A stretch of DNA of 32,000 nucleotides from Delftia acidovorans NBRC 14950 (GTDB lineage: Bacteria; Pseudomonadota; Gammaproteobacteria; Burkholderiales; Burkholderiaceae_C), in assembly GCF_001598795.1 (NCBI RefSeq), contig NZ_BCZP01000026.1, positions 1 through 32,000 of the forward strand, in the 5' to 3' direction. The notes below the pieces were generated by a model. It did no database searches, was not told the DNA's origin, and saw only the letters and a program-made list of their open reading frames with translations. Below, one piece after another: positions 7,211 through 10,064 of this stretch (the first letter of the stretch is position 1; each line of letters opens with the position of its first letter). The position numbers were made by a program, and so were the translations under genes.

Positions 7211-8302
7211 CTACAGTTCGTAGAACGGGCGGTTGGCCTCAATGCGCGCCTGCTCGCTGACTGGGTAGCGGCGCTCGGCCAGCAACTGCTGCAGCGCGGC
7301 GCGGCCCAGGTCGCGCAGCGGGGTGTAGAAGGCGCTGACGGCCAGTTCGTCCAGCGCGCGCCAGTCATAGACCTGGGAATCGATGAACAGGATGTCTTCG
7401 GCCGGACGCGGCAGTGCGGCGGCCTGGCGTGCGAAGAGGCAGGCCAGGGCGAACTCGGAGCGTTCGCGGTGGTAGCGCGCCAGTTCGCACAAAGGCTCGG
7501 CCCGTTGCGGGCGCGCCGCATAGGCCGTGAGATAGGCCTCGCGCACGGCAGCGGGTTCGGCGCCGGATCGCTCCAGCAGCACGCCAATCTGGAACAGCGC
7601 AAACCACTGCTCCTCGGCCCAGCCGCCCATGGCGGCGCGCTGCCGGTACCAGTGCAGGCTGGGCTCGATCTGGCCCGCATCGCGGTGGCTTTGCGCCAGA
7701 TAGAACACGTTGCGCGTGTTGCCGGGCTGCTCGCGCACGGCCTTTTCGAGCACGGCGATGTCGCGCAGATAGGTCTGCGGGTCCCGGGCCCGAGCGCCGT
7801 CGTGCGAGACATCGATGAAGGGGCCCTCCAGCATCTGCCAAGGCTGGTGCGCCGGAGCTGTCAGGTATTCGTGCAGCACGCCTTCCCAGCGCCAGTCCAC
7901 GTGCGTGGCGATCAGGGCGTTGCGCTGGTATTCGGTGCCCGCCATGTGGCAGGACAGCATGCAGCCGTCCGCCTCCAGTGCAGGCCAGGCAAAGCCATCG
8001 GGCACGCGCAGTTGCTCATCGGCATCGATGAACAGCAGGTAGTCGCCGTGCGGGCGTGCCAGCTGCAGCGCCTCGTTGCGGTTGTGGGCGAAGTCCAACC
8101 AGAGCCGCTCATGCAGGCTGCCGGGCACGCCCTCCATGCACTCGCGCACCAGGGCCTGCGTGCCGTCGCTGGAGCCCGTGTCCACGATGACCCAGTGGTC
8201 CACCCAGGGCTTGACCGAGGCCAGGCAGCGTGCGATCACCGGGGCCTCGTTCTTGACAATCATGTTCAGGCAGATGCGAGGCCGAACGTTCAACATGACC
8301 AT
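7211..8302 (-). CDS. Family-2 glycosyltransferase with a TPR-like helical C-terminal half
   Basis: The N-terminus ..ICLNMIVKNEAPVIARCLASVKPWVDHWVIVDTGSSDGT.. and a ..FIDADE.. (DxD) motif point to GT2. The C-terminal region has helical repeats, and there is no signal peptide. Confidence 0.8.
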   Translation of the reverse strand: MVMLNVRPRICLNMIVKNEAPVIARCLASVKPWVDHWVIVDTGSSDGTQALVRECMEGVPGSLHERLWLDFAHNRNEALQLARPHGDYLLFIDADEQLRVPDGFAWPALEADGCMLSCHMAGTEYQRNALIATHVDWRWEGVLHEYLTAPAHQPWQMLEGPFIDVSHDGARARDPQTYLRDIAVLEKAVREQPGNTRNVFYLAQSHRDAGQIEPSLHWYRQRAAMGGWAEEQWFALFQIGVLLERSGAEPAAVREAYLTAYAARPQRAEPLCELARYHRERSEFALACLFARQAAALPRPAEDILFIDSQVYDWRALDELAVSAFYTPLRDLGRAALQQLLAERRYPVSEQARIEANRPFYEL

Positions 8303-8376
8303 AGCGCAGACACGAGACTCATTGGCAGGAGCACGACACCATCACCGCGATGCCAGACCAGCTAACTCGAGCATCA

Positions 8377-9357
8377 CTATTGACACATAGCCGACGCTTC
8401 GACTGCCAAGTCCTGGAATACCGAGTATTGGCAAGTCCACTTATCCGAAGCAGACCAATACCCTCCCTCGAAGTAGCTTCCCCCTCGTCCCGCCGTGACG
8501 CGGCATCCTCCGCTGACAACCGTCTTGCCGGCTGAGCAGGTTGCAGTCACTTCGACAGCGGCGTTCGGGAAGGCCGACAACGTCCAAGATCCGGTGTTGG
8601 TCACTTTGGTCAACGTCACCGTACCGGTCCCAGATGGACCTTGCACACCTTGGGGTCCATCGGCGCCGGTCGGTCCTGTCGCCCCGGTTGCCCCGGTGTT
8701 ACCTGCCGGACCCTGCGGTCCCTGCAGACCCGTGGAGCCCGCCGTACCGGCCGTGCCCGTCGCCCCTGTTGCTCCCGTCGGGCCTGTGGCGCCAGTAGAA
8801 CCCGTCGCGCCAATGCCAGTGGCTCCCGTGGCCCCGGTCATGCCCGTAGAACCTGTAGCACCTGTGGGCCCTGTCACACCCGTGGCGCCCTGGACGCCAA
8901 TTGCGCCTTGAACCCCTGTCGCACCCGTCGCACCCGTTGCGCCCGTCGGTCCTGTAGGACCCGTTGCACCTGTTGCACCCGTGCCATTGGCTCCCGTCAC
9001 ACCGGTAACCCCCGTAGCCCCCGTGGCGCCAGTCGCACCTGCGGGCCCGGTGGCACCCGTAGCGCCCGTGGCTCCGGCGCCCACACCCGCCGCACAGTGG
9101 ACCAGTTGACCAGTAGCACCGGCTACACACAGCAACTGGGAGCCTGTGGCTGTATCGGCCGGAAGTGCCGGCACCAATACCTCACCAGTGCGCTGAACCC
9201 GCAGGCGCTCAGCGCCCACAGAGTTCTTGATCACGAAATCGCCGTTCGCAGGCAGCGTGATGGAGACATCAGCCGCAAAGGCGGTAGGCGCATGCAGTCC
9301 GGCGCACGCGAGCACGGCCAGCAGCAGAGCGGGAGCGGGGCGATGATTTTGATTCAT
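8377..9357 (-). CDS. Secreted collagen-like (G-x-T triplet) repeat protein with a Cys-containing C-terminal globular domain
   Basis: This is the internal ATG at 9357 of the 594-aa track ORF. It has a signal peptide ([28 protein letters not shown]|AD), about 50 Gly-X-Y triplets (mostly GAT, GPT, GVT or GST) and an ~80-aa C-terminal domain with 4 Cys. Confidence 0.8.
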
Positions 9358-9365
9358 AGGTTTGT

Positions 9366-10064
9366 TCAGGAGCGGGTCGAATTGCGCTGACGATGCAGGG
9401 CCATGCCGCCGAGCAGTAGGCTCATCAACATCAGGCCATAGGTGTTGAGCGTGGGAATGCTGGCGGGCGATGTCACTACGGGAGCACCGATCTGCACGTT
9501 GCCGGGAACGGCACTGCCGCTGGGGTTGGATACCGTGGCTCCGGGGCCCAGAGTGACTACGGCCGTGCCGGGGCCCGACGAGGTCAGCACCACCGGCTTG
9601 CCGGGGGCGCCCAGCGTCAGCGTGCCCAGCACCGTGAGATTGGTGCCGGCGGGAAGCACGATGGTCGGGGGCGTCGGGCCGGTGCTGATCAGCGTCAGGT
9701 CCTTGACGACGATGTTGCCGCTGAGCGTCAGGGTCGTACCGGGTGCGCAGGTGTCTGAAAGCACCACGCTGCTGGTGCTCAGGTTCAGTGCCGATGCGCT
9801 GGTCAGGTCGCCGCCGACGTTGAGCACGCCGCCCGTGCCCGTCACCGAGGAGCCCGCATCGAAGCTCAAGGAGCCCGAGTCGAATGAGCCCGTACCCAGG
9901 GCCAGTTCCCCTCCCATCGAGACGGGGACGCAAAACGAAGTGAACGAGCCGCCGGCCAGATCGATGCTGGAGCCTGGAGGAAAAACGATCTGCCCCCACG
10001 CCGAGCCGCACAGCGCGGTGCCCAGGGCCAACGACGCAGCCCAACGTTTTCCAAAACCTGCCAT
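9366..10064 (-). CDS. IPTL-CTERM sorting-domain protein (secreted, Gly/Ser/Thr-rich repetitive body)
   Basis: It has a signal peptide ([24 protein letters not shown]|Q). The C-terminus ..[34 protein letters not shown] shows an IPTL motif, a TM helix and a basic tail. Its stop is 8 nt upstream of the collagen-like gene. Confidence 0.75.

Follow-up and report, generated by a model that had tools for sequence, protein, structure and literature searches.

Why would a P22-like prophage carry, immediately upstream of its packaging genes, a gene for an exported collagen-like protein together with genes for a glycosyltransferase (GT) and for a second exported protein that ends in an IPTL-CTERM tail? 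We asked this question for the window, meaning the whole 32,000-nt stretch of contig NZ_BCZP01000026.1 of Delftia acidovorans NBRC 14950, where the three genes, called here the module, lie on the minus strand at positions 7211-10064. On balance, we consider it probable, with room for doubt, that the module is a self-contained surface-fibre unit that came from a Comamonadaceae chromosome and is carried as a moron upstream of terS. The direct observations behind this reading concern gene anatomy, domain identities, co-conservation of the three genes, their chromosomal origin and their variability among related prophages. The module is an observation far beyond chance, since its three-gene order repeats in many independent genomes.

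The glycosyltransferase and the Gly-X-Thr repeats beside it

We scanned the neighbourhoods of GT homologues in 80 genome loci, using six-frame open reading frames (ORFs) and counting stretches of 8 or more G-x-y triplets in which Thr predominates at position Y. Results showed that a Thr-dominated collagen ORF lay within 3 kb of the GT in 38 of the 80 loci and more than 5 kb away in only 3 (Fisher p = 6.6e-11), two of these three distal ORFs being long genes that reach the GT. Among the loci with full flanks, 29 of 54 had a G-x-T ORF near the GT. The positive loci belong to Burkholderiales, Acinetobacter, Polyangia, Bacteroidota, Armatimonadota and others, and the proteins that carry the repeats are of different kinds; judging from the sequences, the repeat and not the carrier protein is the constant feature of the pairing. 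The breadth of this GT/G-x-T pairing is not described in the open-access literature that we searched.

Several loci illustrate this diversity of carriers. On a plasmid of B. thuringiensis, a 363-aa GT homologue adjoins an exosporium-leader-peptide protein and aligns with the GT family of the window over both domains (302 columns, hhalign probability 98.9%, E = 1.1e-17). The IncF plasmid NZ_CP048651.1 of Enterobacter roggenkampii (locus L170, 1615-6191) encodes an autotransporter whose beta-barrel is preceded by about 55 G-x-T triplets, and a GT homologue of 34% identity comes directly after it; this case looks like a glycosylated collagen-stalk autotransporter on a conjugative plasmid. Phages are represented as well: the jumbo phage Tunturi_5 has a GT homologue at a distance of 3.7 kb from a tail fibre with G-P-T repeats, and low-GC environmental phage contigs (L093, L122, L129, L131 and L141) encode, in this order, sugar-nucleotide enzymes, a GT homologue, a protein of about 134 aa and long collagen-like ORFs without signal peptides. 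By their N-terminal motifs, the sugar-nucleotide genes are of the epimerase/dehydratase, aminotransferase and nucleotidyltransferase types, and the collagen-like ORF of L141 reaches 1229 aa, Thr being present in 226 of its 263 triplets. These environmental contigs suggest phage tail-fibre glycosylation cassettes.

The enzyme itself was characterised by profile searches. It carries PF00535 (44.1 bits, cut-off 23.3; 2.8e-11) and PF13704 (5.7e-8), matches phrog_13126 over its full length (2.3e-30) and has no hydrophobic segment, in agreement with its first description as a cytoplasmic GT2 enzyme. The GT-A DxD motif is found at D93-A94-D95; in alignment A1 (24 sequences), D93 and D95 are invariant within I-D-A-D-E, and so is the D41-T-G-S-x-D-G-T block. 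When a profile of 24 GT homologues was searched against the PDB, the matches were GmaR (1.7e-15), SunS (8.5e-14, over the GT and part of the helical domain) and a ThuS-like protein (2.4e-10), and profile positions 165-292 matched TPR proteins (3.5e-10 to 1e-3), including the TPR of OGT (1.6e-4). Moreover, the GT showed weak PF12895 and PrsT TPR matches, and its homologues carry precomputed TPR Pfam domains. Of these cytoplasmic GT2 enzymes, GmaR is the flagellin O-GlcNAc transferase of Listeria, and SunS and ThuS act on peptides as S-glycosyltransferases. By profile comparison, the window GT is homologous to such protein and peptide glycosyltransferases and not to lipopolysaccharide (LPS) enzymes. 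Its homology to the characterised members is of superfamily level, with a SunS equivalog score of 30 for a cut-off of 350, and we therefore place it in a separate subfamily. The family is large, with more than 5,000 protein matches, at least 584 of 600 candidate stretches in species-representative genomes, and 513 IMG/VR viral contigs.

The idea put forward in the first-pass annotation, that the GT could modify the neighbouring G-x-T protein, is well supported, if indirectly, by the 38 against 3 of 80 loci, the variety of carriers, the kinship with GmaR and SunS, and the architecture of SgtA of C. difficile, which is compared below. Given these, modification of the collagen-like protein by the GT appears very likely. 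The transferred sugar may be GlcNAc, a tentative assignment made by analogy.

The two exported proteins

The collagen-like protein scored 74.1 bits with PF01391 (cut-off 27.2; 7.6e-21). It consists of a signal peptide (residues 1-28), a conserved N-domain with a C-x9-C pair (residues 29-94), a stalk of 49 G-x-y triplets in blocks of 11, 18 and 20 (residues 95-245) and a head formed by a beta domain of about 80 aa, with four invariant Cys in alignment A3 (residues 246-326). The head corresponds to the Cys-containing globular C-terminus foreseen from the letters alone, and the former estimate of about 50 Gly-X-Thr triplets was right for their number and not for their composition, Thr occupying position Y in 32 of the 49. 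Sec signal peptides had been claimed for both exported proteins, and inspection of their n-, h- and c-regions bears this out, with conserved cleavage sites after AWG (before Q) in the IPTL-CTERM protein and after AFA (before AD) in the collagen-like protein. The A-x-A site followed by A-D is conserved in collagen-like homologues. We also considered a lipoprotein, given the "VLAC" at residues 15-18, and rejected it because this Cys is not conserved in the homologues whereas the A-x-A/AD site is.

The head profile gave no significant match against the PDB and Pfam, the best being T4 gp10 at E = 0.9, and with the Scl1, Scl2 and Lcl equivalogs of NCBIfam the protein reached 55-75 bits for cut-offs of 325-500, with only the repeats aligned. 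A single-sequence AlphaFold2 (AF2) model had a mean pLDDT of 41 (57-77 in the head) and was too poor for use. A search with the N-domain in a database of 5.8 billion proteins returned only three fragments of 83-133 aa. This scarcity can be attributed to gene calling, such genes being rarely called: in the source annotations the collagen-like gene is replaced by a gap or by a spurious opposite-strand ORF, both in the window and in the loci L084 and L085. The gene family is systematically under-annotated, and because annotations and the protein database lack its genes or show them truncated, it is also under-counted.

The IPTL-CTERM protein ends, at residues 201-227, in an IPTL motif, a transmembrane helix and a basic cluster. 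This tail exceeded both curated cut-offs (PF18203, 35.3 bits for a cut-off of 20.8, 9.8e-9; TIGR04174, 34.3 for 20.5, 2.1e-8), so that the assignment to the IPTL-CTERM sorting domain stands; it also weakly matches the XrtH-substrate model. The signal peptide has a basic n-region and a hydrophobic h-region, and Q25, the first mature residue, is invariant in 24 homologues. Between these ends lies a body of about 175 aa, a Gly/Ser/Thr/Val-rich beta-solenoid with two invariant Cys, C45 and C106 (alignment A2, 24 homologues). An AF2 model computed from 24 sequences (mean pLDDT 78, core 85-90) predicts an all-beta fold, a low-confidence linker and a helix at 208-231. When this model was compared by Foldseek with the PDB and BFVD, no significant neighbour appeared, and only non-significant beta-helix matches, for example pectate lyase family 3, were seen. 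The 33 homologues found are nearly all from Comamonadaceae; tblastn added distant syntenic IPTL-type relatives in Halieaceae, Porticoccaceae, Lysobacterales and Rudaea, in which the tail motif drifts to VPAL, IPAL or VPT.

As the collagen gene adjoins the IPTL-type gene in 12 of the 13 genome loci that have one, we see in the IPTL-CTERM protein a candidate base of the fibre, or a partner of its conserved N-domain. The ratio of IPTL to collagen genes is 1:1 in the duplicated units of prophages and 1:4 in Acidovorax facilis, where the four N-domains are near-identical. A role as the anchor of the fibre is possible, and it is the weakest step of our model. No exosortase-, sortase- or rhombosortase-type gene is on record within 10 kb of the module, as the first reading of the window had noted for a sorting enzyme.

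A host chromosomal module and its prophage copies

The search of related prophages and genomes for the three-gene unit showed that the genes are co-conserved. An IPTL-type gene, a collagen gene and the GT gene are syntenic in about 12-13 of the 80 genome loci, in addition to the Delftia and Paracidovorax chromosomes, and the order IPTL-type, collagen, GT repeats in Acidovorax, Paracidovorax, Ottowia, Halieaceae, Porticoccaceae and Lysobacterales. The best homologue of the GT is a D. acidovorans protein of 95% identity. It belongs to a chromosomal copy of the three genes (232, 361 and 369 aa), located between miaA with an ABC/FtsX transporter and PALP/AttH, with no phage genes. A metagenomic Delftia-like contig and Paracidovorax avenae have the same arrangement, and since Delftia and P. 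avenae share it, the site of the module is conserved across genera.

When the window is compared with the D. acidovorans chromosome, DNA homology begins exactly at the GT stop codon (7211) and ends at 10211, 147 nt upstream of the IPTL start. Identity is 92.5% over the GT gene and 79% over the IPTL gene and the N-terminal part of the collagen gene, and the head has no homology; at the protein level, the IPTL-CTERM protein of the prophage is 90% identical to its chromosomal counterpart. From these alignments, the prophage carries a copy of a module that is conserved on the host chromosome. Because the GT, the IPTL-CTERM protein and the N-domain match the chromosome and the head is unrelated, what a lysogen would gain by conversion is mostly a new C-terminal head domain.

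The prophage copies are variable. The module adjoins terS in seven related P22-like prophage contigs, and terS is 97-99% identical in the contigs L086-L091. Five IMG/VR contigs with terS of this identity have one or two IPTL-collagen units beside it, with different heads, and in three of the five the order is IPTL, collagen, GT, IPTL, collagen, terS. An identical GT protein is encoded in a second related prophage contig, which has no Crp-like gene. Across the prophage collagen proteins, the signal peptide, N-domain and stalk are kept and at least three unrelated head types occur. Similarly, in Acidovorax facilis a single IPTL gene precedes four collagen paralogues whose N-domains are near-identical and whose heads all differ. 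A conserved base, a stalk of variable length and a swappable tip form, as far as sequences can tell, the pattern of a displayed fibre under diversifying pressure. The first-pass annotation had spoken of an unusual lysogenic-conversion module: the part about prophage cargo holds, as the unit is variable and adjoins terS in seven contigs. The unit is not phage-specific; it copies a host module with mostly the head renewed.

Two further loci deserve mention. In another D. acidovorans genome (GCA_037146395.1; L171, 1-9700), a decayed island next to dusA contains an integrase fragment and an IPTL gene of 88% nucleotide identity and has no GT; its collagen gene has the head type of the window with an in-frame stop and a frameshift, and a further collagen paralogue of 323 aa is intact. 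In L168 (GCA_041916775.1, 2671-7719), genes for a PAS sensor kinase and a sigma-54 activator stand directly before distant homologues of the IPTL and collagen genes, an arrangement that may point to two-component control of this lineage's fibre.

The window contains the right part of a P22-like prophage, whose order leftwards from the integrase is ERF, the cro/cI region, NinB, YbcO-type genes, a protein of 76-111 aa, the module, terS, terL and portal (Table 1). The gene order, the shared strand, the gaps of 8 nt (IPTL-collagen, 9358-9365) and 74 nt (collagen-GT, 8303-8376) and the location between the nin-like region and terS agreed with the first-pass coordinates when verified. All three ORFs are intact, and the GC content at their third codon positions (GC3) is 0.81-0.87, as in genuine genes, in local DNA of about 65-66% GC. 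The tyrosine integrase gene ends 4 nt from a dihydrouridine synthase (dusA-type) gene, which places the prophage at the 5' end of dusA, a known type of integration hotspot; beyond dusA lie the PHB depolymerase and MCP genes of the host. A tRNA scan of the window found no tRNA or att-type tRNA, and megablast of 5000-13000 against 50,697 phage records gave zero matches.

Table 1. Positions of the module, its parts and neighbouring features in the window
Feature	Position	Strand	Remarks
Dihydrouridine synthase (dusA-type) gene	26697-27827	+	beside the integrase gene
Tyrosine integrase gene	25638-26693	-	
Crp/Fnr-like regulator gene	10583-11413	+	strand opposite to module
Two winged-helix-like paralogues	10308-11867		flank the Crp/Fnr-like gene; position is that of the whole region
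Hairpin, U-rich tail	10296..10344	-	directly 3' of the stop of the upstream 76-aa phage gene; terminator-like
AT-rich upstream element	10158..10241	-	putative promoter/operator; travels with module
IPTL-CTERM protein gene, 232 aa	9366..10064	-	PF18203, TIGR04174
Collagen-like protein gene, 326 aa	8377..9357	-	PF01391; ATG at 9357, stop at 8377
Collagen-like, signal peptide	9274-9357	-	
Collagen-like, N-domain	9076-9273	-	
Collagen-like, stalk	8623-9075	-	
Collagen-like, head	8380-8622	-	
GT2 + TPR glycosyltransferase gene, 363 aa	7211..8302	-	PF00535, PF13704, phrog_13126
GT stop-terS start spacer, 84 nt	7127..7210	-	no terminator-like structure
terS	6425..7126	-	first packaging gene; phrog_1206 at 4.8e-70; downstream border of cargo slot
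terL	5085-6428		downstream of terS
P22-type portal	2282-4645		downstream of terL
Lysis genes	1959-2285 and leftwards		directly after portal

The slot upstream of terS had been described as one where lambdoid phages carry late regulators or lysis genes. Holin, lysozyme and Rz-like genes were found directly after the portal, between portal and capsid genes (in L084, at 16018-17401), a position unusual for a P22-like gene order. As the lysis cassette follows the portal, the slot is not a displaced lysis region, and no Q-type antiterminator or late promoter was identified at the locus. On the other side of the module lies the gene for the Crp/Fnr-like regulator with its two small winged-helix-like paralogues, which have 208 nt in common at 84% identity (10361-10568 against 11585-11792). 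The related prophage L085 has one winged-helix-like copy and no Crp gene, which suggests that the Crp gene came in as a second piece of cargo next to the fibre module. PADLOC gave zero matches for the three module proteins, the 76-aa protein and the Crp-like protein.

Regulatory elements were examined on both sides of the module. The AT-rich element (GC 0.20-0.28) is kept upstream of every IPTL gene examined in alignment A4, namely in the chromosomal loci L081 and L082 and in the prophage loci L086 (copies 1 and 2), L087 and L089, and since it accompanies every unit, each unit seems to bring its own regulatory region. We propose it as a putative promoter/operator, promoter function being deduced from its sequence and position; a consensus sigma-70 scan of the module strand found no match. 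A sigma-54 promoter (GG-N10-GC upstream of the IPTL gene) was considered and rejected, as the chromosomal copies lack it in alignment A4. The hairpin folds as RNA with -33.6 kcal/mol (z = -2.67) and contains two overlapping terminator-like sites (10329-10288, consensus scan); it would insulate the module from transcription of the upstream nin region. In the spacer between GT and terS no terminator was called, and the fold was no better than shuffles (z = 0.34). Transcription of the module could read through into the packaging genes, or late transcription could read through the module. Of the promoter and terminator of its own that a moron would have, the module thus shows the upstream element and the upstream hairpin, without a sigma-70 consensus and without a terminator before terS.

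Proposed mechanism, alternatives and known systems

From these data we infer a mechanism that covers glycosylation of the collagen, the identity of the sugar, the surface location, the interaction of the IPTL-CTERM protein with the fibre and expression in the lysogen. In the cytoplasm, the GT2-TPR enzyme would bind the unfolded collagen-like pre-protein through its TPR and use a nucleotide sugar to O-glycosylate the Thr of the G-x-T repeats; by analogy with SgtA and GmaR, UDP-GlcNAc would be the best guess for the donor. The modified chain would be exported by Sec and its signal peptide removed at the AFA/AD site, after which chains would trimerise into a collagen stalk with the Cys-pair N-domain as base and the polymorphic four-Cys head as tip. 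The IPTL beta-solenoid would be exported in parallel and serve as base or partner of the N-domain, after a host enzyme whose gene lies elsewhere has processed or anchored it by means of the IPTL-CTERM tail. The lysogen would display a fibre with a head type unlike that of the chromosomal copy.

Several points weigh against this reading. Among the loci with full flanks, 25 of 54 have no G-x-T ORF near the GT, and among 80 viral contigs 15 have a Thr-dominated ORF within 3 kb, compared with 5 distal ones; with so many loci lacking a nearby G-x-T ORF, the GT family may have other substrates. The scores of the GT stay below the SunS cut-off and those of other equivalogs, and the link to SgtA passes through published architecture, the B. 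thuringiensis homologue, GmaR and SunS, and stands as an analogy. At one Delftia locus, the island described above, IPTL and collagen genes occur without an adjacent GT, though the collagen gene there is a pseudogene. To our knowledge, no cognate sorting enzyme has been described for IPTL-CTERM, the interaction of the IPTL-CTERM protein with the fibre is suggested by gene order alone, and the model has no route for a collagen trimer across the outer membrane. Finally, given that no terminator separates the GT from terS, the module might be expressed solely with the late genes.

One alternative is a virion fibre: the collagen-like protein would belong to the tail or head of the phage particle and be glycosylated by a phage GT, with the IPTL-CTERM protein as an unrelated neighbour. 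Its collagen region has matches in numerous tail-fibre families of PHROG (phrog_6320 being the best, 1.8e-43), heads are swapped between near-identical prophages as in receptor-binding proteins, and the examples of Tunturi_5 and of the environmental contigs, where GT and sugar-nucleotide genes stand just upstream of signal-less collagen-like ORFs, show the company that the enzyme keeps in phages. However, the PHROG matches are restricted to the repeat region, the Sec signal peptide and A-x-A site are common to all homologues, orthologous modules in Delftia and Paracidovorax occupy a conserved place on the chromosome that is not of phage nature, terS, terL and portal are missing from the neighbourhood in all 80 genome loci, and the gene stands outside the structural block, upstream of terS. 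We therefore consider a virion fibre very improbable and hold, from these sequence features, that the module is with high probability secreted cargo and not a part of the virion. Adjacency to collagen could instead be incidental if the GT were a serotype-converting or envelope enzyme acting on LPS, O-antigen or another glycan, as the labels of its relatives in PHROG and GenBank would have it ("beta-1,4-glycosyltransferase", "LOS glucosyltransferase"). GT2 is a very broad family, and about half of the GT loci have no collagen ORF. An incidental neighbourhood fits poorly with the excess of near over distal collagen ORFs given above, which spans phyla and different carrier proteins, or with the TPR-containing protein and peptide GTs that are its nearest solved relatives; the enzyme is also soluble and has no flippase, Gtr-type or O-antigen genes in its vicinity. 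An envelope enzyme is therefore very improbable.

Other alternatives accept the genes as a unit and differ in what the unit is for. A functional module might serve superinfection exclusion or receptor masking, a fibre with a different head competing for the anchor of the chromosomal fibre or covering the surface and so blocking related phages. This would fit a prophage copy that keeps the N-domain and the IPTL partner with an unrelated head, heads that differ among prophages with near-identical terS, and a slot just before the late genes that is a classical moron site, as in stx phages. We rate it as unlikely, the idea being entirely inferential, the PADLOC search having returned nothing, and the head diversity being equally explained by adhesion or antigenic variation. 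That the module is a decaying hitchhiker with no role in phage or lysogen is highly improbable: the dusA island of the other D. acidovorans strain, with its pseudogenised collagen gene and no GT, would be such a case, but the three ORFs of the window are intact with a GC3 of genuine genes, an identical GT persists in a second prophage contig, and five more retain the module or even have it duplicated. A broader proposal, speculative and rather unlikely as a whole, would make SgtA-like GT2-TPR enzymes a general cross-phylum system of collagen-repeat O-glycosylation, with hundreds of phages glycosylating their own fibres (the 513 IMG/VR contigs), a nap-like fibre of Comamonadaceae docked on the IPTL-CTERM beta-solenoid, and Delftia prophages that re-tip or displace the host fibre. 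If this were true, the swapped-head units would serve, for example, receptor replacement, superinfection exclusion or a new binding specificity of the lysogen.

A surface-fibre unit of chromosomal origin carried as a moron remains the reading that we favour. If it is correct, the sole characterised bacterial pair for glycosylation of collagen repeats, SgtA and BclA3, would be extended to Gram-negatives, autotransporters and phage tail fibres, and a GT2-TPR gene beside G-x-T repeats would become a genomic rule for predicting glycosylated collagen-like proteins. The module would also offer a tractable three-gene system for the IPTL-CTERM sorting tag and for the display of a collagen trimer by a diderm cell. 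For phage biology, a temperate phage would be seen to copy a surface-fibre module of its host and to shuffle the head, a lysogenic conversion of surface architecture and not of toxins or O-antigen.

The closest precedent is the SgtA-BclA3 pair of C. difficile, and not the Bacillus BclA to which the module had been likened. SgtA has 358 aa (GT-A 1-260, TPR 262-358), its gene adjoins bclA3, and it moves beta-O-GlcNAc from UDP-GlcNAc onto Thr of collagen-repeat (G-P-T) peptides of BclA3 (PMC7157674). Compared by published architecture, the Delftia GT resembles it in its GT-A domain with C-terminal TPR, in its length (363 aa) and in the position of its gene beside that of a G-x-T collagen-like protein. 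The Delftia system differs in its Gram-negative host, in a substrate with a Sec signal instead of an exosporium N-terminus, in gene order, in the extra IPTL-CTERM partner and in being prophage-borne. In Bacillus, the N-domain of BclA attaches to BxpB/ExsFA of the basal layer, the G-P-T stalk bears O-linked sugars, and the head is of the C1q-like type. The Delftia fibre shares with this nap a conserved N-terminal domain, for attachment in BclA, a Thr-rich collagen stalk, a globular head and a separate, here candidate, base protein; its head is instead an 80-aa four-Cys beta domain without detectable relative, and its candidate base is an IPTL-CTERM beta-solenoid.

Other protein glycosylation systems share the logic more than the parts. 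GmaR and SunS/ThuS are cytoplasmic GT2 enzymes with a helical or TPR substrate-binding domain and modify a protein or peptide encoded nearby, their acceptors being Ser/Thr of flagellin and Cys of a bacteriocin, respectively. Aah and TibC heptosylate autotransporters in the cytoplasm before export. HMW1C-HMW1 offers a precedent, also in a Gram-negative, for a soluble cytoplasmic GT that modifies a surface protein before Sec export (PMC3012730). HMW1C (GT41-like) and the heptosyltransferases belong to other GT families and use other acceptor motifs. The tripartite tail of the IPTL-CTERM protein (short motif, transmembrane helix, basic cluster) recalls the PEP-CTERM/exosortase system, from which the module differs by having no sorting-enzyme gene nearby and by a motif that drifts in distant homologues. 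As to the setting, morons of lambdoid phages such as stx lie between Q and the lysis genes. Like them, the Delftia cargo has an upstream regulatory region of its own, sits where the early-right/nin region has ended and the first late gene is about to begin, and varies among near-identical prophages; unlike them, it comprises three surface-fibre genes taken over from the host chromosome, with the lysis genes after the portal. In conclusion, a collagen-like glycoprotein with a dedicated adjacent GT2-TPR enzyme is already known, and what is new is its Gram-negative, Sec-exported version with an IPTL-CTERM partner, the capture and shuffling of this module by a prophage family, and the breadth of the pairing across phyla, carriers and phages.

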